A stretch of 64,000 nucleotides of DNA from Nitrosopumilus sp. (GTDB lineage Archaea; Thermoproteota; Nitrososphaeria; Nitrososphaerales; Nitrosopumilaceae): assembly GCA_963662625.1 (NCBI GenBank), contig OY759726.1, positions 1,056,001 through 1,120,000 of the forward strand, read 5' to 3'. Below, piece by piece: positions 5,457 to 57,809 of this stretch (position 1 is the first letter of the stretch; each line of letters starts with the position of its first letter). The translations under genes and the position numbers were made by a program. The notes beneath the pieces were generated by a model that saw nothing but the letters and a program-made list of their open reading frames with translations, searched no databases and had not been told where the DNA came from.

Positions 5457-5530
5457 GGGTCTATGGCGCAGCCAGGTAGCGCACAGGACTCTTAATCCTG
5501 CTGTCAAGGGTTCGAATCCCTTTAGACCCG
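5457..5530 (+). tRNA. tRNA-Lys (CTT)
   Basis: Acceptor stem GGGTCTA/TAGACCC; anticodon arm CAGGA-CT-CTT-AA-TCCTG; GGTTCGAATCC T-arm. Confidence 0.95.
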
Positions 5531-5699
5531 CTCCCACCAATGGCACCCACCCGCGGCGCGGCCACTACGTCCGGCACCGTCCTGCAAACGCGCTCTGCCA
5601 GGCGCCCAACAAGATTGTGGCCCCCACGCGCCGCCTGTAGTATATGTAAAGTCGGTCCGCTAACCATCTGTGTCCACCTCCATCCATCTCGGGCTGCTC

Positions 5700-5810
5700 T
5701 CACTGATCGTGCCCTGGCATTCTTGTCATGGAAGGCCTTCATCGGGGTCTGGCAGTTGCCGGTGTCCGGGGAGAAGCGCAACCTGTCCCAGTTGCAGTAC
5801 CCGACGCACT
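5700..5810 (-). pseudogene. Probable remnant of an IS481/IS3-type transposase C-terminus
   Basis: Minus strand reads CVGYCNWDRLRFSPDTGNCQTPMKAF, resembling the integrase-core end motif YYNxxRxHxSL...TP. Confidence 0.45.
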
Positions 5811-6325
5811 AGGACGTGCTCCCGTGGCGTAGTATCCGTGATTAAAATGGGATCAGGCACGGTGCACCAAGTTTCCTGCACGACTGCATTGGGTGGATGC
5901 AGGCATCGATCTTGGCCATGCTTGGCAACGGGGAGGCCAGGGCCATCAAGATGGTCCAATATTTAACACCGTCACTGCGCCATGTCCCGTGTGGGTTTCC
6001 ACGTATTGAATCTTTTGGTCGGGATTGTTGTCCAAGTTGTGATCCAACATCAATCGCGTATACTACGCACCCTGCCCGAATGCCTGAGGACGTCCCACGC
6101 AGGGCTTGACGTTATGAAGTACACCAGCAGGAAGCCCTTGGTGCTCAAGAACTTTTGAGCGTTGCTATAGGTTGTTGCCAACGGGGACGGTGCGCGGCCG
6201 TGATCCAAGGACTTTTCGGTTTGGCATGGCTGGGCCGGTGGTTCAACTGTTTGGACCCGGCAATTTCTGGCAGTTGTGCAACAGGCTACAAAGCTGGGTT
6301 TCCTTATATTGTGCCAGTGGCAGGC

Positions 6326-7402
6326 ATGAACATGGTAAAAAGCTGCATAGGGATAGACACTACAAACTATTTCAGGCAAGCCAGTAAGCCGTTTCAGGCA
6401 CCCATTGGGGTGGGGCTTGAGGTTGAAGACTATGACGTGTTTACGAGCAAATACGACTCAGTTGTCGAGGAGTTGAAGAAGACACATGACATCTCCACGA
6501 ATAGGAAATGTATCAAAAGCCATTATGTCTATGAAAAAAACCCGTCTTCTGCAAGGCAGTTCATAGCTGATTTTACAAAAAGACTCATGCCACACGTAAA
6601 AACAGTCTTTGTGTCACATACCATACTCAACTCCCAAAAAACACCCAGAATTCAATACTACAGGGGAAGGATGGCTGTAACCCCCAGCGAATTCGTTTTA
6701 CATCTACAGAGTTATTACCCGCATGTTCTGGCATGGAAGATACTTTCTACCCTTCCTGACAGGAGGAACTCCGTGTTTATGCTGGATCACTTTACTGGAC
6801 ATATCACAAAGGCGTGGGAGCAGATCGAGAATGAAAACATTTTGATCTACCCATCAGGAGAGTACTGCAACCCACTGATCTCATCTGCCGACTTTGTGTC
6901 CAAGTACATAAGCGATTTCATCCACCTTAACAAGACAAGGTTGGAATTCGGATCTATTTCCAAGGCGCTTGGGCAGTTTGGCGTGGAGGAGATCAGTAGG
7001 AACCGCGGTAGCCCCATGCAAGAGCAAAGCACCAAAACAGAACTCTTGCAGTATTTTATCTACGACCTGTCCATGATCACCCCCCATGAGAAAAGGGCCA
7101 TAGATGTCGGCAGGAAGATCAAGCATCCGATATATTTTCTGCTGACTGGAAAGAAATTCAATCGCGAGGCCGAGGCGTTAAAACATACCGTATACTTCGA
7201 CATTGTGGCCAACCGCGCTTGCGGCGATCGGGGTTCCATACGCGCCGTAAATGTGGATGAAATGCCAAACGAGCTAAAAGTCATGCGAGACGGCGACAAG
7301 ATCATTGCGTTTGGCGGCGACTCCCTTGACCTGGCAAATTATCTAGTCAACGACTTTAGCGGCCTGAAGGTCGAGGTGGTTCCCAGCAGGAACTTGAAAT
7401 GA
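6326..7402 (+). CDS. Low-GC hypothetical protein, possibly RNase H-like (DUF3800-like)
   Basis: Long intact AT-richer ORF; N-terminal CIGID strand and NPLISSADFVS resembling the DUF3800 xxQxADxxA motif; start at ATG 6326 or 6332. Confidence 0.55.
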   Translation: MNMVKSCIGIDTTNYFRQASKPFQAPIGVGLEVEDYDVFTSKYDSVVEELKKTHDISTNRKCIKSHYVYEKNPSSARQFIADFTKRLMPHVKTVFVSHTILNSQKTPRIQYYRGRMAVTPSEFVLHLQSYYPHVLAWKILSTLPDRRNSVFMLDHFTGHITKAWEQIENENILIYPSGEYCNPLISSADFVSKYISDFIHLNKTRLEFGSISKALGQFGVEEISRNRGSPMQEQSTKTELLQYFIYDLSMITPHEKRAIDVGRKIKHPIYFLLTGKKFNREAEALKHTVYFDIVANRACGDRGSIRAVNVDEMPNELKVMRDGDKIIAFGGDSLDLANYLVNDFSGLKVEVVPSRNLK

Positions 7403-7459
7403 ACTGCCTTTAGCGCGGCGGGATTCAAGCGCCCGGGGTGTAGTTTGTTGAACACATGA

Positions 7460-8847
7460 TAACCACCCAGGCGTAGTTGCCCCGATGGACCGGCCCCTGG
7501 TAGCGCGTGGGCCTAGCGCCCTTTCTGTTGAATGGGGCAACCCGGGCTGCCGTGTCACTGGGCTTCGCGCCCTGATGGGCGTGTGCGGCCTCCGATCCGT
7601 CAGACATCCGAAAGGAGGTGATAGGAAAGGATGAGAAAGACAAGCATAGGGACAGGCATGGGGAAGAGAAAGTGCGACGCGTGCGTGGCGGGCGGGAACG
7701 GGAAGGTTCCCGGGAGGGGGCAGTACCCCGACACCCGGGACGGCGCGGCGAAGTTCGCAGGGGCGATGGCGCGCAGGCATGCCTGGGCGGCGGCCCCTGC
7801 AGGGCCGCCCGCGAGACGACTGGCAACATGCGGGACAGGACGTCTGGCGCCTCCGGGGCGACCGGGACCGGCATCAAACTGGCCAACACGCACAGGATGG
7901 CCCTGATAGCCAGGACCGCCAAGAAGACCGACATGGTGGACGCCGAGAAGATAGCGCAGGTGCCGGGAACGGGCATGATACCGGAGCGCTGCGTCCCCCC
8001 GGGCCACACCAGGGGGATACGCGCGATGGCCGGGCATAGGGTGAGGCTGGCCCGGGACAGGACGCGCGTGACAAGCCGCGCCCGCAGCCTCCCGGGCCGC
8101 CACGACATCCAAATGGACGCCTCCACCATGCACTCCGAAAAGGCCCTGGGGCAGCCGGAGTCCGCGGGGCCGGGCTCCGTGTGCGACGGGGCGGTGCTGG
8201 TCCAGTGCGCCCGGCAGGCGGGGCACCTGACGGAGGAGATCTCCGTGACGGAGGGGCTCCCCGGGACGGGGGCCGCCCACAACGGTGACGCGAGGCTGCC
8301 GGCCGGCACGGCCGGCGTCGGCACGCTCGCCGCGGTGCTGATGGCCCCAGGGATGGGGGACGTCCCCGGGTTCAGGGGGCCAAGGCAGATGGCGTCGTGG
8401 GCCGGGCTGTGCCCGGCCGCATGCCAGTCGGGGAACCGGCTGCACGCGGGGAGGATCAAGAAGATCGACTCCAGCAGCCTGGCTAGCCGGGCCACGTGCG
8501 AGGCCGCGGACGTGGCAGTGCGGCACGACGCCAGGATGGAGGCCGTGTACGCGTCCGCGCGCCGGAGGCACGCGGACATGCACGGGCCGGCCATAATCGT
8601 GGTGGCCCACAAGATGGTCACCATAATGTGGCACATGCTGACCACCAAGACACCCTACGAGTCCCGCAACGAGAGGCTGTACCGGCGCAAGCTGGCCAGG
8701 ACGGGTAAGGCGCGCCGGGGTTGACCCCCCCGTTGCCCGCATCCCGGATCGTCTTGCCAGCGCTAGCCATGAATCCCATGCCATGCAACCCAGGCACGGA
8801 TCGGAAAAGCCGTGGGATGCATTGCGGCAACTACGCCTGGGTGGTTA
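7460..8847 (+). mobile_element. IS110-family element bounded by 22-bp inverted repeats
   Basis: TAACCACCCAGGCGTAGTTGCC at 7460-7481 and its exact reverse complement at 8826-8847, enclosing a transposase gene. Confidence 0.8.
7631..8724 (+). pseudogene. IS110-family (DEDD) transposase, frameshifted and degenerate
   Basis: SD-like AGGAGGTG then ATG 7631 (MRKTSIGTGMGK, eroded GID motif); frame changes near 7780-7800; KTDMVDA, GVG, SWAGLCP...QSG and VAHKMV motifs. Confidence 0.88.
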
Positions 8848-9090
8848 ACATAGGTGCGCAACCATGCCTGAACCCGTCTTTGTGGGGTTGTTTTTCGTGC
8901 CTGAAAACCGAGTTGCGCAACAAGCTACTTGGGGGGGAAACTATACCTGAAATGTGGGTTGTGCAAGAGCACAACGCACTATATTTGTAGTCTATGAGCA
9001 TGACTCCTAGTCGAAGCCGTGCCCTATACACCATATGTATTATTGGGTATATATACGGTCTGTTACATACTAGGTATGAGGTCACCACCC

Positions 9091-10040
9091 CTACACTATC
9101 TTGGATACCTCGCCTGACAGGGATTTCCCGTGCCTCTCCCACATGATCATGCACGTCATGAAGTGGGACCACCTGTCCCTCCAGGGCTTCCCTCCCTTGA
9201 TCTGGCCGCTTATCTTTCGGGACGCCACCACGTGCCGCAGGCCGCGCCCGGGGGCGCTGTCCGTGGGCCCCGCCCCCCTGTGCCCCGGGAACGTGAACAG
9301 GCGGGGCAGCGGCGCCTGCAGCCTGCCCGCCAGGGGGGCAGGCGCGGTGCCCCCGGCGTCCCCGTGCCCGAACGGCAGCCTGCGCATCCCAGACTCGAAG
9401 GCGCGGCGCAGGCGCGCCGAGTGCCTGCCCGAGGCGGCGGCCGCCGGCGCCCCCTTCCTCTCCGCGGCGCGCCGCAGCTCCCGCAGCCCGTGGGACCGGC
9501 ACGGCCGGTGGCGCCCGCCCGGGCCTGACCTCCCGTACGCGGAGGGCCTGCCGGACGTGACGATCCCGCGGTACCCGCCCGCGTGCCTGCCTGGCACCCG
9601 CGGCCCCCTGCTCCGGCCGTGCACGATCACGGCGTTCCTGCCGGACCGGGTGACCCGCGCCCGCCCGCCCTCTCCCGCCAGGTTGGCGCGCGTCTCGTCG
9701 GCCCCGGCATTCTTGGACCTCCTGGCGCGGCCCACGATGTCCCGGAACTGCCCGCGCATCGCGCCGCGGGTGTGCCCCGTCACGTTTATCGCGGTCGATT
9801 TCGCGATCCTCACCCCCGTGATCTCCCGCACGGCCCCCGCCATCTTCCCGAACGGGACGGCCGCGTGGCGCAGCGCGGCCACCGCGGCCACCGTGTTCTT
9901 GCCGTAGCTCCCGCGCGCAGGGAGGCCGCTTGGCGCCACGTGCTCCCTGCTGCACTTGGGGCACGCGGCGGTCTGGACGGCGTGGCGCGTCTCCGTCACC
10001 ACCACCTCAAAGTCCAGGATGTCCCGCGTGACGGGCCCAG
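9091..10040 (-). pseudogene. IS66-family transposase, degenerate and N-terminally truncated
   Basis: CPKC zinc-finger remnant, ADET, HRPCRSH (HQxCWAH), PTDSAPGRGLR (PTNNxxERxLR), RKISG. Confidence 0.82.
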
Positions 10041-10144
10041 TAGTTGAAAATGTACCCCGCGGGGCGCCGGCCAGCATGTTTTGACACGATCCGTGAACGT
10101 TTTGGACAGAAAAGCCAATTGATCAGGCGCCCCTGTCATCCCTT

Positions 10145-10494
10145 ATGCAACACCAAAAAGAACCACAGGGGCACCGGCTTGAGGTGGCGGGCAAGGCGTT
10201 TAAAACGTTGCCACGGCTGCTTGGGAAGGCGGGCATCAGGTTCTCGGGCCGGCACAACGCCGCGTGCGGCATGGCCGACTTCGTGCGCGTGCTGGTGTCC
10301 ATGTGCAGGGACCGCTCGTGCGCGTCGGGCGCCGCCGGGGCGCTCGCCGTGCGCCACGGGCCCCGCCGCGTACCGTCGTCGACGTGGTTCCTGTCCAGGA
10401 TAGGGGGACGTGCCGGGACCCCGGCGCCATGGAGGGCGGGTGCAGGGACGCCCTGCGCTCCACGGTGCGCGGGGCCCGTCGCGCCGGGATCATC
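10145..10494 (+). pseudogene. Possible ISH3/IS4-like transposase N-terminal fragment, interrupted by the IS110 copy
   Basis: DFVRVLVSMC...VPSSTWFLSRI helical segment reminiscent of archaeal DDE transposase N-termini; frameshifted, ends at the IS110 boundary. Confidence 0.4.
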
Positions 10495-11535
10495 GGGGGG
10501 TCAACCCCGGCGCGCCTTACCCGTCCTGGCCAGCTTGCGCCGGTACAGCCTCTCGTTGCGGGACTCGTAGGGTGTCTTGGTGGTCAGCATGTGCCACATT
10601 ATGGTGACCATCTTGTGGGCCACCACGATTATGGCCGGCCCGTGCATGTCCGCGTGCCTCCGGCGCGCGGACGCGTACACGGCCTCCATCCTGGCGTCGT
10701 GCCGCACTGCCACGTCCGCGGCCTCGCACGTGGCCCGGCTAGCCAGGCTGCTGGAGTCGATCTTCTTGATCCTCCCCGCGTGCAGCCGGTTCCCCGACTG
10801 GCATGCGGCCGGGCACAGCCCGGCCCACGACGCCATCTGCCTTGGCCCCCTGAACCCGGGGACGTCCCCCATCCCTGGGGCCATCAGCACCGCGGCGAGC
10901 GTGCCGACGCCGGCCGTGCCGGCCGGCAGCCTCGCGTCACCGTTGTGGGCGGCCCCCGTCCCGGGGAGCCCCTCCGTCACGGAGATCTCCTCCGTCAGGT
11001 GCCCCGCCTGCCGGGCGCACTGGCCCAGGACCAACCCGTCGCACACGGAGCCCGGCCCCGCGGATTCCAGCTGCCCCAGGGCCTTTTCGGAGTGCATGGT
11101 GGAGGCGTCCATTTGGATGTCGTGGCGGCCCGGGAGGCTGCGGGCGCGGCTTGTCACGCGCGTCCTGTCCCGGGCCAGCCTCACCCTATGCCCGGCCATC
11201 GCGCGTATCCCCCTGGTGTGGCCCGGGGGGACGCAGCGCTCCGGTATCATGCCCGTTCCCGGCACCTGCGCTATCTTCTCGGCGTCCACCATGTCGGTCT
11301 TCTTGGCGGTCCTGGCTATCAGGGCCATCCTGTGCGTGTTGGCCAGTTTGATGCCGGTCCCGGTCGCCCCGGAGGCGCCAGACGTCCTGTCCCGCATGTT
11401 GCCAGTCGTCTCGCGGGCGGCCCTGCAGGGGCCGCCGCCCAGGCATGCCTGCGCGCCATCGCCCCTGCGAACTTCGCCGCGCCGTCCCGGGTGTCGGGGT
11501 ACTGCCCCCTCCCGGGAACCTTCCCGTTCCCGTCC
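10495..11535 (-). mobile_element. Second, inverted and end-truncated copy of the degenerate IS110 transposase
   Basis: Near-identical reverse complement of about 7693-8730; lacks the flanking non-coding ends and the first codons. Confidence 0.88.
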
Positions 11536-11572
11536 ACCTGCATGGTGCCCATCCCCGCGGGCAACTGCACGC

Positions 11573-34818: not shown

Positions 34819-35045
34819 CGACCCTCTGAGCGGCGCCCGGCGTTATCTTGGTTTCTATGGGGAATACCGGCTAGAATAATTGCAAGCAAACCCGGACAAT
34901 CGTGCATTATTTGGCGGCACGGGGGGCAAAACGTGCCCAATCTTGCAATTTTTATAACGCGCGATCTAAAAATTACCCAAACGGCTGCCCGGCCGTCAAA
35001 TATGTGGACATAATCGGGAAATTATGGACAAATTGTCCATTAGCC

Positions 35046-35053
35046 TTATATAG
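35046..35053 (+). promoter_or_regulatory. Probable TATA box of the S-layer gene
   Basis: TTATATAG about 30 nt before ATG 35081 within an AT-rich intergenic region. Confidence 0.6.
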
Positions 35054-35080
35054 AAATTTTATTGAAGACACTGCAATAAC

Positions 35081-38000
35081 ATGAACAACGAAATAGGACG
35101 AAAACTAACTAGTCTTACACTAATGGCAATCATGGTTGTCGGCGGGATGACTATCGCAGCTCCCGGCTTTGCCCCGGCCGCACAGGCCCAGCAAAGCAAC
35201 GCCAACCTGTTTGTCTCCGCGGAAAATCCGACATTCGAGAACTACATAGGCGGACCACAAGTCATCGAGGTGGTAGTCATTGACTCAAACATCAGTGACA
35301 CCGACGAGGCAAAGGGCGAACCGGACGTTACCGTCAACGGCCAGGATCTAAGAATGGTCCAGGCAGTCGACGGAAGCTGGTATGGCTACTTTGCCGAGAT
35401 CGAGATGGCAACCATGGCCGATGCTACAACCACTACGGCCGGCGCAGGCCTGGACTTTGGCACTATCTACAGTGATGTGTCACGGGCCAGTGGCGTGCTC
35501 GGCGTCTCCATCAGCGAGGCCGACGGCTTTGCCGCAGGCAGCAACATCAACGTCGTAAGGGAGGCCAAGGACATCAACGACAATGTGCCCAAACTGGGCC
35601 AGATTGGCGTCAACGATAACATGTGGCCCTTCATACAACTATATGACTTCACCCCGACGGGCAGCGTCGTAGTGCAGTACAACAAGGGCGGTGGTGCCCA
35701 AACGGCAACATTCACCTTTGACACTGTAGACGGCTATGCCGGCGCAACACTGGACAGGCAAACGTACCCCCAGGGTGCGCAGCTCCACACCACAATCACG
35801 GACACGTGGCTCAACATAGACCCGACTGACGAGGACTCTTGGACGTTTGACACGGCCCGCAGTCTGATTTACTACCAGGTCTACGATGAGAACGGCAACT
35901 CTGCTGGCGGTGCTACAGCTAGCACTGACCTGACAGATGACATCAGCGGCCTGATGTGCGACGACTGTCTGCTCATCATCGCCCCTGACGCGCAAGCGAC
36001 GGGAACTGACGTGGTTACATTCCAGGGCACCAAGAACGGTGCACTGGTTGCGAACATAATGCAGCAGGTCACGGTCACAGAAATGGGACCCAACAGCGGC
36101 ATGTTCGGCTCGTATGACGAGGACGATGTTTCCAGCATTAAAATCTCAGACGATGCAATGCGAAGGACATCTGCAACCCTTGACTACAACGATTCCCCAC
36201 AGACGGTTCTAGTAGGATTTGACTTTGCGACCATTGACATCATGCCGGTGGACGACACGTGGAACTCCGGCGAAGCGATACCCATCGTGATTGTTGACGG
36301 CGACGCCAACAAGAACAGCAGGGCAGACGAGGACTATGCCGTGAGCAATCCGGACACGCCTCTGATCCCGACGCTGGTAACCGGTGACCCGTTCACGCTA
36401 GGTGACGGCGCTGTCAACGTGGCTCTCAACACGTCTTCGGGCGGCACAATGACGACCACTACGGAGGTGCAGCAATTCAGCGACAGGGCATTGATCATGC
36501 CAAGCAGTAACACCACTGCCATGGTCAATTCCGTCGTGATTGACTTTGGTACCAACATGGAAAGCCTGAAAAGTACGCTCCTTGACACAACCCAAGACAG
36601 AACCTATGGATACAACTTCTACAACCAGGACGTTCAAAGCCTAGGCTTTGGCACAACTACGGTGTCGTTGCTGTACTCCAGCGGCTCCATCGATGGCAAC
36701 AGTTCGTCAATACCGCTAGGCAGTGCTGATGCGCAAAGCGGCCTGGTGCGTGTTACCGACGATGCCATTTCCCAAATAATGGCAGTTGACGGCAACATGA
36801 ACGTCGGACTGCAAATCGCCAGCTCAAACGGTGTCAACGTAAGCGCAGGCAGCACAATGCCCATCGTCACTGACTTCTTCTCCTACGGCTTCATGAACAA
36901 CGGTGAATTTGGAAGCGAGAGAATCGCAAACCAGATCATCAGGATCGAAGTCGAGGAGAGCGGCGACAACACGAGCACCTTCGAGGGATCGCTGGAATAC
37001 GTCATGGTCAACCAGCTGAACATACTTGACGAGAACACGTACACAGGCTTGGACACGATCTCAGACGCGGTGACGTTCATCGCGATTGAGGACATGACCG
37101 ACGAGGACTCCATCAGGGTCAACTACCTTGACCTTGGTGCCGACGGCGTATCGACCCAAATAGCCGATCAGCAGGAGGCACCAACCAGCTCGGGCATCGT
37201 GTCACTTGACAACGACAACTACAAGGTTGCCGACACGGTAACCATCACGCTGGAGGACGCTGACATGAACGTGGACTCTGATCTCGTGGAGATCTACACA
37301 ATTCCTCCACAGTCAGATACAGTCGGTCAAATACTTCCAGTTGTCCTCCACACCGGTAACCTAGGCAGGGTACTGGATGTAACGTTTGATGATGCTCCGT
37401 GGAAGACGCCTGCCGACAACATGTGCGGCGGTATGTCATTCACAGGCGATACAGGCCTTGGAGCAACCGGATTCACTCTGGTTGAGACAGGTTCCGCAAC
37501 AGGCGTCTTCATGGGTGACTTCCAGATCCCGGCAACTTGGTGCCAGAAGGACAACGACAACGACCCCGGCACCGTCATGACAACGACTGGACTTGACATT
37601 GAGGTCAACTATGTTGACTTTAGGGACGCGTCAGGCGAAATCATCGAAGTCGGTGATGGAGCAGGCGTAAGGGCCAACACTGGCTCAGTAAGCCTTGACA
37701 AGACGGTATATCCTGTACCGTTCGGCGTTCCAGGAGACTCTGTCAAAACCAAACCCAACAATAGCAATACACCAGACGGTAGGTCGGTATTCCCGATCCA
37801 CCAGACTGGAATGGACGATAATGTAGGTTTGCACGTCGTCACTGTTGGCGACCAAACAGCAGAGGAGTTCCTCAACAACGGTGATCTGACCGTTCACGTC
37901 AGGGTCAACGATGCAGACTTTGACATATCTGCATCCGGCGAAGACAAGATCGCGCAAAACGTTCCGTGTGGGAAAGACAATCAGGGCAACGACGTGTGTC

Positions 38001-39925
38001 CAGGTGTTGGTCCAGTCAAGCTCTCAGTTATAAGGGGAGCTAGTACTGTCGTACTGGGCTATGCTGGAGGTGAATCAACCGTGAATGGATGGATCACCAA
38101 TGACCAGAATGTCAAGGATGGTATGGTAACCATCGACGACAAGGGCATACCAGTCAACCAGTTTGGCCCAATCACGGAGGTTGCACCAGACGCTGGAATC
38201 TTTGAGGCAGACATAACCGTCAAGTTCACCGACGGGCCAGCAGACAGCAAGTGCCCGACTCACGACTACAACAACAGGGTCGTTACGCCGCCAACTTCAG
38301 GAAACTACTGTATCCTACAGGGGGACATCCTCCAAGTGGAATACACTGATCCTACTGACGCCTCTGGCAGCCTGAACACCGTGACTGACTCTGCTACGTT
38401 TGACCTCAGAAACGGCGTACTGCAGTCTGACAAATCCGTCTACCTCATAGGCTCTGACATAATCCTGACCCTCATTGAGCCAGACTTGGATCTGGACAAT
38501 GACCAGGCCGAGACATACAGCTTGGACCTGATCGAGTGGGACTCTGATGCAGCCACGGTCACCATGGGTATCCTTGGTGCCACCGACGGCGCATTCGACC
38601 CGGAACCCTCCGACTTCAGGGAAACCGGTGACAGCACTGGAATCTTCCAGATCGTCATCGAGACTCCCTCGGCACTCAAGGGTGACAACCTCGAAAGGGG
38701 TGAGGAGATAGCGCTAGAGTACACCGACTGGGGCCCGTCCGGCTCCGATTATGTCGGTGACGAGGACCAGGATGTCAACCTGACGATCTACACTTCGAAC
38801 TTCGGAGCAACCGTGGAACTTGACCAAAAGGTCTACACTTGGACTGACAAGGTATACATCACCATAGTCGCGCCAGACCACAACTTCGACGGCGACCTAG
38901 TTGACGAAATCGGCAACACCGACTCGAACCCCATAAAGGTTTCGACCAGGGGAGCCGACCTTGACAACTACAAGCTGGTCGAGACTGGCACTGACACGGG
39001 CATCTTCACCGGCGAGGTAATCCTTACCGGTTTCGCACATGATGCCGACGGTGACACTACCACCGGCTCCACCGGCAACGACGTAATGGATCGTTCGCCG
39101 TCTGGCAGCGGTCCGACCGATGGCACACTGCCATCTGACGACGACGACGGCATCACCGTCTCCTTTGATGTCTCAGAGGACGACACGATAGTCGGCTCGG
39201 CGCTAATCAGGTGGAACATCGGCGAGGTCCAGTGGCTCGAGTCAAGCTACCCGGCAACGGGAACTGGTGTTGTAAGAGTAATTGATCCAGACATGAACCT
39301 AGATCCAGAAGCAGTCGACAACTTCAACGTCGATGTATGGTCCGACTCCGATTCCGGAGGCATTGACCTTACTGTGACCGAGACCAACGAGGCTACCGGA
39401 ATATTCGAGGGCACGGTGTTCTTCACCGTCAGCGACCCCTCATCCGGCCACAGACTCAGGGTCGCAGAGGCCGATACCATAACCGCGGAGTATGAGGACA
39501 ATACGTTGCCTGATCCATACACAACTGCAGATGAACTCGACGTCACTGCCACGTCGCTAATCGGCACTATAGTACCAGCTCTCGAGAGGGCACCAGCCTC
39601 AAACTTGAGAGTAGTTGATGCATTTAAGAACAGCCTAGACGCTGTCTCAGTTGATCAACAGGTACAGGTAGTCGCTGACGTGACGAACGGTCAGGACAAG
39701 GAGCAGCCATTTGCATACTTGGTACAGATTCAGGACAGCAACGGCGTCACAGTCTCACTGTCATGGATAGAGGGCTCACTGTCAGCTGGTCAATCACTCA
39801 GTCCGTCGCAGTCTTGGACTCCGAGCGCAGCCGGTAGCTACACGGCAACCGCGTTTGTCTGGGAGTCTATTGACAGCCCGACGGCACTGTCTCCATCAGT
39901 AACGACGACCATCAGTGTAAGTTAA
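35081..39925 (+). CDS. slaA: Major S-layer protein (SlaA-type of ammonia-oxidising archaea)
   Basis: MNNEIGRKLTSLTLM signal, NANLFVSAEN, repeated acidic Ig-like units with ETGxxTGxF; 1614 aa, very Asp-rich. Confidence 0.9.
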   Translation: MNNEIGRKLTSLTLMAIMVVGGMTIAAPGFAPAAQAQQSNANLFVSAENPTFENYIGGPQVIEVVVIDSNISDTDEAKGEPDVTVNGQDLRMVQAVDGSWYGYFAEIEMATMADATTTTAGAGLDFGTIYSDVSRASGVLGVSISEADGFAAGSNINVVREAKDINDNVPKLGQIGVNDNMWPFIQLYDFTPTGSVVVQYNKGGGAQTATFTFDTVDGYAGATLDRQTYPQGAQLHTTITDTWLNIDPTDEDSWTFDTARSLIYYQVYDENGNSAGGATASTDLTDDISGLMCDDCLLIIAPDAQATGTDVVTFQGTKNGALVANIMQQVTVTEMGPNSGMFGSYDEDDVSSIKISDDAMRRTSATLDYNDSPQTVLVGFDFATIDIMPVDDTWNSGEAIPIVIVDGDANKNSRADEDYAVSNPDTPLIPTLVTGDPFTLGDGAVNVALNTSSGGTMTTTTEVQQFSDRALIMPSSNTTAMVNSVVIDFGTNMESLKSTLLDTTQDRTYGYNFYNQDVQSLGFGTTTVSLLYSSGSIDGNSSSIPLGSADAQSGLVRVTDDAISQIMAVDGNMNVGLQIASSNGVNVSAGSTMPIVTDFFSYGFMNNGEFGSERIANQIIRIEVEESGDNTSTFEGSLEYVMVNQLNILDENTYTGLDTISDAVTFIAIEDMTDEDSIRVNYLDLGADGVSTQIADQQEAPTSSGIVSLDNDNYKVADTVTITLEDADMNVDSDLVEIYTIPPQSDTVGQILPVVLHTGNLGRVLDVTFDDAPWKTPADNMCGGMSFTGDTGLGATGFTLVETGSATGVFMGDFQIPATWCQKDNDNDPGTVMTTTGLDIEVNYVDFRDASGEIIEVGDGAGVRANTGSVSLDKTVYPVPFGVPGDSVKTKPNNSNTPDGRSVFPIHQTGMDDNVGLHVVTVGDQTAEEFLNNGDLTVHVRVNDADFDISASGEDKIAQNVPCGKDNQGNDVCPGVGPVKLSVIRGASTVVLGYAGGESTVNGWITNDQNVKDGMVTIDDKGIPVNQFGPITEVAPDAGIFEADITVKFTDGPADSKCPTHDYNNRVVTPPTSGNYCILQGDILQVEYTDPTDASGSLNTVTDSATFDLRNGVLQSDKSVYLIGSDIILTLIEPDLDLDNDQAETYSLDLIEWDSDAATVTMGILGATDGAFDPEPSDFRETGDSTGIFQIVIETPSALKGDNLERGEEIALEYTDWGPSGSDYVGDEDQDVNLTIYTSNFGATVELDQKVYTWTDKVYITIVAPDHNFDGDLVDEIGNTDSNPIKVSTRGADLDNYKLVETGTDTGIFTGEVILTGFAHDADGDTTTGSTGNDVMDRSPSGSGPTDGTLPSDDDDGITVSFDVSEDDTIVGSALIRWNIGEVQWLESSYPATGTGVVRVIDPDMNLDPEAVDNFNVDVWSDSDSGGIDLTVTETNEATGIFEGTVFFTVSDPSSGHRLRVAEADTITAEYEDNTLPDPYTTADELDVTATSLIGTIVPALERAPASNLRVVDAFKNSLDAVSVDQQVQVVADVTNGQDKEQPFAYLVQIQDSNGVTVSLSWIEGSLSAGQSLSPSQSWTPSAAGSYTATAFVWESIDSPTALSPSVTTTISVS

Positions 39926-39945
39926 AAAACTAGTTCGCATTTCCC

Positions 39946-39960
39946 TTTTTCTTTTTTTTT
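39946..39960 (+). terminator. Oligo-T archaeal terminator after the S-layer gene
   Basis: TTTTTCTTTTTTTTT about 20 nt after the stop codon. Confidence 0.75.
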
Positions 39961-40014
39961 GATTCCCACTTAACGATAGTTATGCACGATGATCCTGTCA
40001 ACGCCTGGCCCGCT

Positions 40015-46026: not shown

Positions 46027-47596
46027 GAGGAGGACCGGCGCGGTAGCGTTCTTCTACTGGCTGTGGAACGGGGTAGACCGGACGATCTTCACGGCAATCA
46101 AGTTCTCGTTCCCCGCAAGGTTCGTAAGCCCGTTCGGGTTCTTGGGGATGCTCACCTTCATCGTGTTCATCATACTGGGCGTGTCCGGCGCCCTGCTCAT
46201 GTTCTACTACCAGCCCATACTGGACCGGGCGTGGGACAGCGTCCAGTTCATCAACGACGAGGTCCCGTTCGGCTTCCACATAAGGAACATCCACTACCAC
46301 GGCTCGAACGCCATGGTGCTGCTCGCCGTGCTCCACATGTACTACCAGTACTTTAGCGGCAGGTACAAGATCAGAAACGAGGTCCTCTGGATGACCGGCG
46401 TCATACTGGGGGTGGTGACCATACTCGAGGCCTTTACGGGCTACGACGTGATATTCAGCGAGAGGGCGGAGCTTGCAATCAGCATCGCCGCGTCGCTGAC
46501 CACGTCGATACCCGTCGCCGGGCCGGTCATACGCGACGCCGCGCTTGGCAGCGGCTTTTCGGACTTTGTGCTGCGGTTCTATGCGCAGCACGTGTTCATC
46601 CTGCCCGTAGTGATGCTGGGGCTGATGGCCGTCCACTTCCCGAGGTTCCTCGTGTTCGACGTGCCGATGGTGATGGCCATAGGGGGGGCCATACTGATCA
46701 CCGGGGGGGTCTTCCCGATCGACCTGGGGTTCAAGTTCGAGCCCACGGTGCCGCCCGGAATCACGGTCCCGGAGTGGTACCTGACCGGGATCTACGCGTT
46801 CATGAGGACGCAGTACGACAAGTTTGTGACTGGGCTGCTGTGGCCGCTGATATTCATCATATCGTTCGTGCTGATACCGTTCATAGACAGGTACAAAAAG
46901 TTCTCTTGGAAGGACAGGCCGATAATCACCGCCTTCGGGATAACCAGCCTCGCCCAGATCATGGTTACCACCTACTGGGGGTTCTACATCTCGCCTGACG
47001 TGTCGATACCGCTCGTGGAGCGCCTGGTGATCGACCCGGTCTTCTTCTACTCGGTGATGATACTGCTGGTTCCGCTGGGATTTGGGTTCACCTACATGAT
47101 GATCAAGCTCGCGAAGGAGGCAGAGCGGAAGGCGAAGCTTGCCAAGGACAACGGCCCGAACAAGGTGGCCACGATCAACCTGTCCGAGAAGTGGATCAAC
47201 TGGGTGATAGTGGCCCTGCTCGCGTTCCAGGTCTTCCTGAACATAGCGGCATACAACGCGGCGCTGACCGGGATGAACAACATCTCGCTGTTCTTCGTGG
47301 GGCTGATACTGATAGTGTTCGGGGCGTTCTTCCACATATACCGGTACGGGCTCAACAAGGCAAACGAGGCACCGCCCCCGCCGCCCATGCAGGCCCTTGA
47401 GGAGAGGCCCAAGGAGCTCGCCGAGCCGGAGGCGTCCGAGGAGCCGGCCGCGCTGCCTGACGCAAGCGCGGCAAAGGAGGGCCAGAAGGAGGCGCCCCAG
47501 ATCCAGGCCACGTCGAAGGGCAGCCCAGGCAAGCCAAATGCCGGCCTCGGCAAGTCGGCCGACGCGGGCCCCGGCCCCGACGACCCCAAGCAGTAG
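46010..47596 (+). CDS. petB: Cytochrome b of the bc-type complex
   Basis: IRNIHYHGSN..LHM, RFYAQH..VH, PEWY motifs. Confidence 0.95.
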   Translation: MAVSLERRTGAVAFFYWLWNGVDRTIFTAIKFSFPARFVSPFGFLGMLTFIVFIILGVSGALLMFYYQPILDRAWDSVQFINDEVPFGFHIRNIHYHGSNAMVLLAVLHMYYQYFSGRYKIRNEVLWMTGVILGVVTILEAFTGYDVIFSERAELAISIAASLTTSIPVAGPVIRDAALGSGFSDFVLRFYAQHVFILPVVMLGLMAVHFPRFLVFDVPMVMAIGGAILITGGVFPIDLGFKFEPTVPPGITVPEWYLTGIYAFMRTQYDKFVTGLLWPLIFIISFVLIPFIDRYKKFSWKDRPIITAFGITSLAQIMVTTYWGFYISPDVSIPLVERLVIDPVFFYSVMILLVPLGFGFTYMMIKLAKEAERKAKLAKDNGPNKVATINLSEKWINWVIVALLAFQVFLNIAAYNAALTGMNNISLFFVGLILIVFGAFFHIYRYGLNKANEAPPPPPMQALEERPKELAEPEASEEPAALPDASAAKEGQKEAPQIQATSKGSPGKPNAGLGKSADAGPGPDDPKQ

Positions 47597-54744: not shown

Positions 54745-55008
54745 TACAGCCACAGGCATGGCATGCACATGTATGAGAGGAGAACCTGCCCCCAGGCTTG
54801 GCGGTTTCTTCATGGGGGCGATACAGGGATAGCTCGGCATCGGATCTTTTGACCAAAGATTGTAGTCCTTGCTGCGGGCCTAGTCTGATGTCACGTACTA
54901 CTGGCACGAAGCCGTTGATCGGCATTCTTCATCTAGGCGCGGATATGCATAGGATGGGTTTGTGCGGGTTTTCTCGCCGAATTCCAAGGATGCGCACATA
55001 CCCATGCA

Positions 55009-55530
55009 CTAAAAAACAAACTTGTGCCAGACGTACCTGAAAGAATCATTTTGTTTCTTTGCGACCTTTACATCGAATCGTTTCAATATCTCTTGCATGA
55101 AATCAATTCTAGAATCATGTTTGCCCAATCTGTTATGTTCAAACATTTCCTTTGATATCCCTTCTGTATTGGGATAAAACGGTATTCTTAATTTACGGGT
55201 GCTCGCACGATCCAGGCCGGCGAGATACCAGCTCTCGATTTCTTTTTTTGCTACCGCGATTTTCGCAAAACCAGCACCAGGTATTTTGTTTTTCAAAATC
55301 GTTTTGCTTTCTGTGATGCATTGGGACGTGTCAAAATCCGCAAATATGACGTATTCGGAATCTGCACGTTTTAAAGAATTCAACATGGACTCTATGGCTT
55401 TTTTGGGCCGTTCTGCATACAGATAGGTCACAATCTTGTCATATTTTTTTGCGAGTTCGGATTTTAGCACACGGTTGAAGAACCGCTCATCATCTGTGCC
55501 TTCTAATAGCACAAACAGGAATCTAGGCAA
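55009..55530 (-). CDS. TOPRIM-like protein (DUF4435/DUF4276-like), putative nuclease partner of the ATPase
   Basis: VLLEGTDD (EGxxD), FADFD (DxD), KEIESWYL; low GC; abuts the ATPase stop. Confidence 0.7.
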   Translation of the reverse strand: MPRFLFVLLEGTDDERFFNRVLKSELAKKYDKIVTYLYAERPKKAIESMLNSLKRADSEYVIFADFDTSQCITESKTILKNKIPGAGFAKIAVAKKEIESWYLAGLDRASTRKLRIPFYPNTEGISKEMFEHNRLGKHDSRIDFMQEILKRFDVKVAKKQNDSFRYVWHKFVF

Positions 55531-56823
55531 TTAACTCCCTAAAATATTCTGCACGTAAAGTTCTTCCACCTCCATTTCGTTCTCCAGGAACACCTTGATT
55601 TCTTCTTGATCCGAGGACTTTATTATCTCAGAATGGCCCTCGGAATCTCGCCGTACTGTAAAGAGGTTTTCCAGGCCGGCATACCTCACAATTTCGGGAT
55701 TGTGCGTTGTGATCATTATCTGTCTCAATGATGATGCATCGTTCATCATTTCCATGACTCTGGCAATCAAGGATGGGTGGATGTTCCGTTCCGGTTCTTC
55801 AACTATGGTTAACGCGTTGTCCTGAAAATAAAGGGCTACTACCAACGCGGTAATGTTGATTGTGCCATCAGAGATCAATGAGGATGGCAAGGCGCGTTTC
55901 TTAAAATAATTTTCCGTCAGGGTGAACAAAACGGATCTGTCTGCGATGTTTTCTGTGTTGACTGATTGTACAAACGGTAGCATGTCTGTTATGATGTTGG
56001 AAAATTTACGCCTGTCGGCATTGTTGGAGATCACATCCTTGACAATGATCGCAAGGTTGGATCCGTCTTCGTTTAACTCCACCTTGCCCGTTAATGGGGC
56101 TGCCCTCTTGGCTAATTTTGGATCAAAATCATAAACTGCCATGTCGGAAAAAAAGTCAGGGATTGCCGGAAAAAAGTAGTCTAGAGTAGACCCGTACTCC
56201 AAAAGCAATTTTTTGCCAGGTATGCGATCACTATACAGGTATTTGCTTAAATTCAAACTTGGTGGGGAGTTTTCATTTGACATATGTATGCTGTGTTGAA
56301 CTTTTCCATCCTTCGTTGTGAGTTCAAAACATCCCGTGTCTACCGGCCCGATGCTTTTGAATTCGCCGCGTGGGCTCCTTTTTAAATCCTCCCGTTTGTA
56401 TGCGGCTATGTCCACTTTCCATGTGTCCCGCATTATTTTGAACCCTGATTTTTTGCCTAATCGCAATTCAAATTCCCACGTGGCTCCCATGTACGCCATA
56501 ATCCGAAGTTTGGGCTCTGCCTTGAACGGCATTCTCATGAGTGCCGCCTGCGGAAGGGTTACTTTAAGCTCTATTACCAAATTCTGCCCGTGCTCTAATT
56601 TGAAGTTGCGAAGATATTCGATTCCGCCCTGCAATGAAATGGCGTTGTCCAACCCCTGTTCCCGCACGTCTTTTAGAAATTTAAAAATTTGAACAAAATT
56701 AGACTTTCCAGAGGCATTCGCGCCGATGATTACGTTGAACCGTTTTAGCTCGATGTTTATTTCCTGAAAGCTCTTAAAATTCTTGACTGTGAGGCGTTCT
56801 AAATAAGGAAAGTCTGCCATCAA
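55531..56823 (-). CDS. ABC/AAA_21-type ATPase (SMC/OLD-like)
   Basis: VKNFKSF, IIGANASGKSN, ISDGT signature, IVEEPERNIHP, QIMITTHNP; low GC. Confidence 0.88.
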   Translation of the reverse strand: MMADFPYLERLTVKNFKSFQEINIELKRFNVIIGANASGKSNFVQIFKFLKDVREQGLDNAISLQGGIEYLRNFKLEHGQNLVIELKVTLPQAALMRMPFKAEPKLRIMAYMGATWEFELRLGKKSGFKIMRDTWKVDIAAYKREDLKRSPRGEFKSIGPVDTGCFELTTKDGKVQHSIHMSNENSPPSLNLSKYLYSDRIPGKKLLLEYGSTLDYFFPAIPDFFSDMAVYDFDPKLAKRAAPLTGKVELNEDGSNLAIIVKDVISNNADRRKFSNIITDMLPFVQSVNTENIADRSVLFTLTENYFKKRALPSSLISDGTINITALVVALYFQDNALTIVEEPERNIHPSLIARVMEMMNDASSLRQIMITTHNPEIVRYAGLENLFTVRRDSEGHSEIIKSSDQEEIKVFLENEMEVEELYVQNILGS

Positions 56824-56942
56824 TTAGTCACCGCTCTATTGCTTAATATTTTGATCGGGGTTTTGGCGTAATGCGGGATCTGGATCGCGCTTCTATGCAC
56901 AGGCCGCCAAAGTCATAAATAATTCTGGATGGCACCCAAGCC

Positions 56943-57809
56943 ATGAAGAGCCTGCGGGGGATGCTGAGCGCCGACGGGCCGGTCGTCATCCCGGGGGTCT
57001 ACGACGCGATAGGGGCAAAGATAGCGGAAAAGACCGGCTTTGACGCCATGTTCCAGACGGGGTACGGGACGTCCGCCTCCATGTTCGGGATGCCGGACTA
57101 CGGGTTCGTCGGGGCGGCCGAGACGGTCGACAACGCGAGGCGGATCTGCCGCGCGGTGTCCGTGCCGGTCATAGTGGACTCTGACACCGGGTACGGGAAC
57201 GCGCTCAGCGTGTGGAACCTGGTCAGGGAGCTAGAGTCGGCCGGCGCCGCGGGAATCTTCCTGGAGGACCAGCGGTGGCCCAAGAGGTGCGGGCACATGC
57301 AGGGAAAGGAGGTCGTCCCGCAGGAGGAGTACACGGAAAAGCTGGGAGCCGCAATCGACGCCAGGGGCAGCAGGGACTTTGTCATCGTGGCACGGACAGA
57401 CGCCCGGGCCACCGAGGGGCTTGACGCGGCAATCGAGCGCGGGAGGCAGAACAGGAAGACCGGGGCCGACGCCGTGTTCGTGGAGGCGCCGGAGAGCCTC
57501 GAGGAGATGGAGAAGATCGGCAGGTCGATCGACGCGCCCCTGGTGGCAAACATGATAGAGGGGGGAGCCACGCCGATCAGCCCGGCCGGCGATCTCTACA
57601 GGATGGGGTTCAAGGTCATCCTTTACCCGCTGTCGGTGCTGTTTGCGAGCGCGTCTGCCGCCATGAGGATACTGGGGGACCTGAAAGACGCCGGCACCAC
57701 CGCGAAATCCGGGCAGGAGGTGGTGGGCTTTGACCGGTTCAACGACCTGGTGGATCTTTCCAAGTTCCGCAGGCTCGAGCGAAAGTACGGATCCGCGAAA
57801 AGGCGCTAG
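56943..57809 (+). CDS. Isocitrate lyase/PEP mutase family (methylisocitrate lyase-like)
   Basis: PGVYD, DSDTGYG, LEDQRWPKRCGH, ARTDA, ANMIEGG. Confidence 0.9.
   Translation: MKSLRGMLSADGPVVIPGVYDAIGAKIAEKTGFDAMFQTGYGTSASMFGMPDYGFVGAAETVDNARRICRAVSVPVIVDSDTGYGNALSVWNLVRELESAGAAGIFLEDQRWPKRCGHMQGKEVVPQEEYTEKLGAAIDARGSRDFVIVARTDARATEGLDAAIERGRQNRKTGADAVFVEAPESLEEMEKIGRSIDAPLVANMIEGGATPISPAGDLYRMGFKVILYPLSVLFASASAAMRILGDLKDAGTTAKSGQEVVGFDRFNDLVDLSKFRRLERKYGSAKRR

Follow-up and report, generated by a model that had tools for sequence, protein, structure and literature searches.

How the dead insertion sequences (IS) of a marine ammonia-oxidising archaeon came to be dead is the question raised by positions 5700-11535 of a 64,000-nucleotide stretch of Nitrosopumilus sp. 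(GenBank assembly GCA_963662625.1, contig OY759726.1, positions 1056001-1120000), a stretch that is referred to below as the window. The source genome (G000) is a single contig of 1,858,698 bp and 63.4% GC, 335 kb (18%) of which is repeated in a self-comparison, and the region of interest is part of an IS graveyard. A sequence-only reading of the region had claimed that its mobile elements were eroded mainly by A:T>G:C transitions, the reverse of the usual bias, and had offered two causes, either a lineage-wide GC-ward mutator or repeat-directed silencing by adenine deamination, a kind of repeat-induced point mutation (RIP) in reverse. The erosion itself is confirmed here, and it is stronger than that reading had stated: the spectrum was seen against intact or lowest-GC copies of the same elements, its polarity was set by outgroups, and the changes come in pairs, one base on each strand, at a fixed distance.

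Nine IS families of the genome were each compared with their intact or lowest-GC member. Pfam assigns them to IS110, to DDE_Tnp_1 (three families), to rve (one family), to the IS630-like group (three families, DDE_3/helix-turn-helix) and to IS66, and five transposase superfamilies are affected (DEDD IS110, DDE_Tnp_1, rve, DDE_3 and IS66). Relative to the reference copies, the nine families together show 3715 A>G/T>C changes, 909 G>A/C>T changes and 1621 transversions, many of the last being derived from old subfamily splits in families F2 and F6. Counted copy by copy in eight families, AT>GC transitions are more numerous than the reverse in 54 of 62 copies, fewer in 2 and equally numerous in 6.

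The IS110-like family alone accounts for 1037 A>G/T>C changes, 58 reverse transitions and 135 transversions. Its eight full-length copies range in GC from 0.63 to 0.77. One of them (c1194k, genome positions 1194282-1195712, GC 0.63) is intact, with the motif GIDIGK and full-length Pfam domains at 98 and 78 bits. The two IS110-like copies of the window, copy A (winA) and copy B, match DEDD_Tnp_IS110 and Transposase_20 at 21-22 and 46 bits with the first 79 profile positions missing, and the form of the motif seen in the window is GTGMGK, in agreement with the GID to GTG change that the sequence-only reading had pointed out; Pfam scores drop in GC-rich copies. When compared with c1194k, copy A carries 50 A>G and 50 T>C changes, 9 reverse transitions and 26 transversions (135 in total), and copy B carries 74 AT>GC transitions, 5 reverse transitions and 17 transversions. 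In copy c720k, A>G/T>C changes make up 45 of 46 differences in a MAFFT alignment and 44 of 44 in a BLAST alignment (likewise 44 of 44 in c728k), and in the more heavily mutated c18k they make up 205 of 224; up to 39% of the A/T sites of a copy have changed. Family F5 gives the same picture, as a dead copy differs by 70 AT>GC transitions, 9 reverse transitions and 4 transversions from four intact copies that are 99.8-100% identical.

The direction of change was examined with transposases of six other genomes, which were scored, at each amino-acid difference, for siding with the intact or with the dead copy. The outgroups favoured the intact copy by 31:0 (c720k), 66:0, 67:2 (copy A), 111:3, 123:2 and 139:1 (c18k), with 8-22 ties per comparison (13 for copy A). 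In the genome contigs searched, no relative of the IS110 element above 67% amino-acid identity was found outside this genome. Majority-rule singleton counts, a candidate approach to the same question, were discarded since changes common to all dead copies are thereby wrongly assigned to the intact copy, and polarity was therefore settled by the outgroups instead.

Along c720k, A>G and T>C alternate above chance (37 runs versus 23.5 +/- 3.3), because a T>C has an A>G three bases on, so that 5'-TNNA-3' becomes 5'-CNNG-3'. In this copy 11 of the 22 T>C changes have an A>G at +3, where 0.4 were expected (z 17.5); in copy A there are 22 such T>C changes (1.9 expected), and the pairing is present in every family tested. 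In ten lightly mutated copies 68 of the 91 AT>GC transitions lie in +3 pairs, and in one copy of family F1b (31758-30486) seven pairs make up 14 of the 16 changes. When all copies were considered, the TNNA sites of the references proved to be unchanged in 1298 cases and changed at both positions in 488, with single changes in 145 (77 at T only, 68 at A only). The odds ratio for joint change is 121 at TNNA, as compared with 4.3, 1.3 and 1.2 at the control motifs ANNT, TNNT and ANNA; at spacings of 2 and 4 the effect is slight (8.1 and 9.1). Copies carry between 1 and about 100 pairs each and share them in a nested fashion. Copies A and B differ at eight sites. Four of these belong to two additional T..A pairs (7689/7692 and 8156/8160) that copy A acquired after its split from the truncated copy B.

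The inner dinucleotide matters as well. TCGA was converted at 28 of 35 sites, TCCA at 27 of 43 and TGGA at 26 of 42; TGCA (8 of 38) and TGAA/TTCA are poor targets, runs of A/T are spared, and on the 5' side of the changed A the commonest base is G (0.45 versus 0.24). Each pair consists of one base per strand, with a 5' stagger of 3 bp, and has two-fold symmetry. Transitions within a short motif, with both strands struck in duplex geometry, are what a deaminase acting on duplex DNA would leave, and they are what is seen here; the strand-coordinated runs of one change type that characterize APOBEC/AID are not seen, the change types alternating instead. The changes also stop at the IS boundaries and are confined to the element in the manner of RIP, as copies with GC of 0.72-0.77 have unique flanks of GC 0.32-0.50 within 100 bp. 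Taken together, we consider it probable that an enzyme-like process, confined to IS elements and coupled across the two strands, edited A:T to G:C and thereby inactivated, or further degraded, the dead copies of at least nine IS families.

The alternative that survives best, although we regard it as unlikely, is that the changes are errors linked to transposition, introduced by a low-fidelity step in the making or repair of each new copy. The sharp boundaries of the affected DNA would suit it, as would the ladder-like nesting of shared sites and the finding that mutated dead copies did spread, since c720k and c728k have all 44 changes in common at different loci. Nevertheless, the same motif and spacing recur in five mechanistically different transposase superfamilies, a polymerase would not be expected to couple the strands at a fixed 3-bp stagger, and elements have moved with few pairs or none, at most three in any of four identical copies of family F5 and seven near-identical copies of F2: the F5 copies carry no pairs, and six near-identical F2 copies carry 0-2 pairs at +3 each (one of them also a +2/+4 pair).

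The lineage-wide mutator, in which lost hypoxanthine or mismatch repair would raise A:T>G:C everywhere and dead IS copies would merely record it, fared worse, and we think it improbable. What can be said for it is that the genome encodes no EndoV and no NucS, that single-copy genes show a weak joint T..A excess against one relative (see below), and that the lineage did rise in GC: at orthologous loci (L001-L006) GC varies from 33% to 67% across the family, and this genome stands at 63-67% there when the same-genus genomes G001 and G002 stand at about 40%. EndoV is, however, missing in 10 of the 12 family relatives searched, some of which have normally decaying IS copies, and its loss here is therefore at most permissive. 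More directly, the favoured motif has not been depleted in the genome at large, as the observed/expected ratio of TCGA falls from 1.55 in unique DNA to 1.19 in IS reference copies and to 0.24 in those copies that are heavily mutated, compared with 0.85 and 0.89 in relatives of similar GC. The AT-rich flanks that adjoin mutated copies argue in the same direction, and a repair defect would leave the concerted opposite-strand pairs unexplained. The bias present in IS copies is absent from a 7.4-kb non-IS pair (a giant open reading frame (ORF) family, 97% identical), for which 48 versus 39 transitions were counted along with 110 transversions and 0-1 pairs. IS110-like copies within the genomes G024, G087, G008, G072 and G001 likewise show balanced transitions together with transversions and 0-1 pairs, and two of these relatives, G008 and G072, are themselves high in GC without such IS decay. 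Conversely, the high GC of the Nitrosopumilus genome is not explained by the IS-editing process.

The clean non-IS duplicate and the nearly untouched F5 and F2 copies also bear on the other half of the earlier proposal. Silencing by a reversed RIP is broadly supported in so far as the process is IS-confined, enzyme-like and directed from A:T to G:C; the targeting of repeats as such is not supported on present evidence, and deamination of adenine would be only one way to produce the trace.

GC-biased gene conversion, which would spread G/C alleles among IS copies, is a still poorer account, and we hold it to be very improbable even though the copies are many and similar. In its favour, about one in five shared-site patterns does not fit a single tree, a sign of hot spots or conversion, and copy A and c1699k, which are kin by common transversions (as are c18k and c1508k), have a tract of three transversion sites in common. 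AT>GC transversions are nonetheless rare (in IS110, 37 A>C/T>G versus 1037 A>G/T>C); conversion bias cannot produce the TNNA pairing or the inner-dinucleotide preference, and in lightly mutated copies the pairs stand on an otherwise identical background.

We also considered that the letters themselves might be wrong, with modified bases on both strands of TNNA sites in IS DNA being misread as G and the consensus flipping at both positions. The geometry is indeed that of palindromic adenine methylation, as at TCGA or CTGCAG, and the genome encodes a PstI/BsuBI-type endonuclease with an N6-adenine methylase at 151.8-155.1 kb. This is scarcely credible, as contigs of two public sequencing runs (X1 and X2) repeat the mutated IS66 and IS110 stretches with 0 differences; run depth over the IS66 stretch equals that of its unique flanks, as befits a single copy, and that over the two IS110 copies is double. 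Neither loads of 1 to about 100 pairs in nested patterns nor changes at up to 39% of A/T sites fit a misreading, and such errors should strike the motif throughout the genome, but unique DNA has TCGA in abundance. Reverse polarity, in which CNNG sites would have decayed by C>T at their methylated outer cytosines and the low-GC copies would be derived, invokes a familiar chemistry (CCGG to TCGA would suit an outer-C methylase) and is excluded by the outgroup, Pfam and F5 tests, as the outgroups side with the low-GC copies, which are also the ones with intact ORFs, full domains and the catalytic GIDIGK, and the ones that are identical and recently moved.

Several observations weigh against the reading of an IS-confined editing process. 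The choice of the lowest-GC member as reference biases the raw spectrum, a bias that the outgroup test and the identical intact copies escape, and the copies share ancestry, so their counts are not independent events. The private changes of c1699k and copy A are balanced, which may reflect background decay or subfamily divergence. Within the window, the IS66 piece shows no bias (19 versus 19) relative to the IS66 reference of the genome, because no unmutated copy of this element survives there, and the 191-nt IS481-like remnant shows 12 AT>GC transitions, 9 reverse transitions and 10 transversions. Confinement is likewise qualified: reading hypermutation requires a reference copy, so that unique neutral DNA could be affected to a lesser degree, and in a blastn-based comparison of single-copy orthologues with G008 the joint T..A change at distance 3 is mildly over-represented (odds ratio 6.2 versus 3.8-3.9, z about 2.6); the same comparison with G072 gave no such excess. 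Both sequencing runs come from a single study, may contain the source sample itself, and have no sequencing technology recorded. Finally, the gene content offers no obvious agent. No enzyme was identified, the sole CDA (cytidine deaminase)-fold gene being dCMP-deaminase-like (46216-46590), other folds not having been searched; the genome has no PF00962 adenosine deaminase and no Piwi; and RNA-guided targeting was rejected, as, Piwi aside, no spacer of a clustered regularly interspaced short palindromic repeat (CRISPR) array of 135 repeats matches an IS. Whole-genome gapped-dinucleotide odds ratios did not discriminate, as codon periodicity dominates them (T..A/A..T at distance 3 is 1.37 in G000, 1.23 in G008 and 1.25 in G072).

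The array just mentioned lies at about 1,683,970-1,693,740 of the genome (L091, 1971-11742) and has a 36-nt repeat unit and 134 spacers of 29-35 nt. Two of its spacers match unique chromosomal DNA perfectly (838004-838035 and 1799693-1799725), which indicates self-targeting or a match to integrated elements.

Among the genes that could be regarded as leads, several N6/N4 methylases are encoded in the genome, and a BsuBI/PstI-type endonuclease has as its neighbours, at genome positions 151795-155085 (L112), a gamma-class N6-adenine methylase and a HerA-like ATPase fragment. PstI-type methylation of CTGCAG shares the T(N2)A geometry of the paired hits; we regard both the locus and this likeness as leads only. 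The same applies to a second TGT-family gene (1524547-1525443), found in a DpdA/TGT-like island. Another N6_N4 methylase match, with two TAG stops, is located at 635603-636544, beside a unique segment of GC 0.81 (634401-634900).

As to mechanism, the observations would be accounted for by a directed process that converts A:T to G:C as double hits, one base per strand, 3 bp apart, and the two-fold symmetry and all-or-none coupling point to a dimeric or otherwise symmetric enzyme that would act on duplex DNA. In the simplest chemistry two adenines would be deaminated to hypoxanthine, which pairs with C; a change of two thymines, or an exchange of bases, would leave an identical trace. Targeting might come about because excised or copied transposition intermediates are exposed and the chromosome is not, or else resident IS copies might be recognised in place. 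The effect would be a mutational restriction of transposons, comparable with fungal RIP or APOBEC editing though opposite in chemistry. That the archaeon encodes a two-fold symmetric enzyme that turns adenine guanine-like on both strands at TNNA sites, aimed at transposons or their free intermediates, is a tentative proposal, which we put forward with clearly less assurance than the editing process as such.

Of the systems known, fungal RIP, which depends on a cytosine-methylase-like protein (RID/DIM-2), is similar in that transitions riddle and kill transposon copies within sharp boundaries, shifting their composition and leaving them alignable. Fungal RIP, however, converts C:G to T:A with a preference for CpA, strikes any duplicated DNA of a few hundred bp and lowers GC, whereas the changes described here run from A:T to G:C, are coupled at TNNA and raise GC without creating stop codons, and the 7.4-kb non-IS duplicate and identical IS copies are spared. 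Mutators defective in MutS/L, NucS/EndoMS or EndoV also raise transitions (A:T>G:C if hypoxanthine persists), and do so genome-wide, uncoupled and usually in both directions, a pattern that does not fit IS-confined pairs. ADAR is specific for adenine in double-stranded RNA and disfavours a 5' G, unlike the process studied here, in which G is the commonest base 5' of the changed A, and diversity-generating retroelements, which rely on a template repeat and a reverse transcriptase, change A to any base. Colibactin, a small molecule, alkylates AT-rich motifs in host cells, and its signature is not one of A>G pairs, in contrast to the GC-rich contexts and IS-confined hits reported here. It is described as forming interstrand cross-links between two adenines on opposite strands a few bp apart, with a spacing-dependent footprint (PMC12657977, PMC12758445). 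DddA, an interbacterial toxin, deaminates cytosine in duplex DNA at 5'-TC (PMC10442228), and thus resembles the proposed activity in acting on bases within duplex DNA with a short sequence preference; it differs in its target base, and coupled two-strand hits are not known for it.

In the portions of the literature that were searched, A:T>G:C hypermutation of IS elements in prokaryotes is not reported, RIP is described in fungi only, and no naturally occurring enzyme that deaminates adenine in duplex DNA is mentioned. The usual view is that prokaryotes keep IS elements in check through selection, deletion and nucleases rather than by editing them. If the proposal is true, this would be the first known case of a RIP-like defence of a prokaryotic genome, and the enzyme would be a naturally occurring editor of adenine in double-stranded DNA; the coupled A:T>G:C killing of transposons would be a new arm of genome defence, and the enzyme would be relevant to the development of base editors. 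Because the footprint amounts to a simple odds ratio, TNNA versus ANNT among IS copies, any genome can be scanned for it. In addition, the GC-rich, stop-free 'ORFs' of IS graveyards are on this account decay products rather than genes.

The features of the window are compiled in the table below. All motif strings that had been quoted from it are present, and the decay of the IS66-like element, previously judged against family motifs without an alignment, was borne out when seven outside transposases were aligned (six across the PTNN block, where P0008 ends). These keep the ancestral forms GRHQxCWAHELR and PTNNAxERALR; the window copy has GRHRPCRSHGLRELR and PTDSAPGRGLR in their place, with HRPCRSH at 9490-9510 (-) and PTDSAPGR at 9244-9267 (-), so that Q>R, L>P, W>R, E>G, N>D, N>S and D>G fall in conserved blocks. 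The fragment matches DDE_Tnp_IS66 at 39 bits over profile positions 2-173 of 284. For the IS481-like remnant the reported motif decay was only partly upheld, as YCNWDRLRFSP at 5767-5799 (-) does stand against YYNEDRLHFSP in the in-genome rve reference and the spectrum of the remnant, given above, is not clean. The reference ORFs of the fragmentary families match Pfam rve at 46 bits (F4), DDE_Tnp_1 and DDE_Tnp_1_5 (F1b) and DDE_Tnp_1 (F2).

Features of the IS cluster and its left edge (window coordinates)
Feature	Position	Strand	Basis
tRNA gene, left edge of IS cluster	5457..5530	+	Rfam tRNA, 69.7 bits
rve-type (IS481/IS3-like) remnant, family F4, 191 nt	5636..5825	-	83% identical to F4 reference nt 2-192
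Terminal fragment, IS5-like family F1b	6177..6289		91-95% identity to ends of ten F1b copies
IS110-like copy A (winA), full-length, dead, GC 0.69	7439..8872	+	Partial Pfam domains only
IS66-like transposase fragment, hypermutated, GC about 0.74	9068..10037	-	Pfam DDE_Tnp_IS66
5' fragment, IS4/IS5-like family F2	10032..10500	+	83-94% identity to F2 copies
IS110-like copy B, both ends truncated, 99.2% identical to copy A and in inverted orientation to it	10495..11538	-	Inverted repeat I1

The sequence-only reading had also noted extremely GC-rich intergenic spacers. Such DNA does exist, as 16 unique segments of at least 500 bp and GC of at least 0.76 add up to 9.5 kb; those that could be identified proved to be collagen repeats or to belong to normal genes, as their tails or as the spacers next to them. 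The idea that these segments are single-copy hypermutated mobile DNA found no evidence either way: 20 ORFs in the 16 segments include 8 with Pfam matches, none of them a transposase, and the 8 are ordinary genes, collagen repeats or weak domain matches. A ParM-like gene in one such segment is intact, with all invariant residues kept.

Outside the IS families, the giant-ORF family comprises 34 repeat intervals (for example 652423-659842 and 681568-688994) with frames of up to 2731 aa, and its divergence is rich in transversions, unlike that of the IS copies. The window itself is mostly of 0.60-0.70 GC, with two low-GC islands at 35001-40000 (0.53-0.54) and 55001-57000 (0.42-0.46). Between the IS fragments, a 415-aa ORF without a Pfam match lies at window 6155-7402 (+) in a low-GC stretch (GC 0.47 for 6001-7000). 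Lastly, IS110-like copies adjoin ends of the IS5-like family F1b three times and in differing orientations (genome 1194267-1196974, 718141-720871 and 728432-731143), which suggests that the IS110-like element targets F1b termini.

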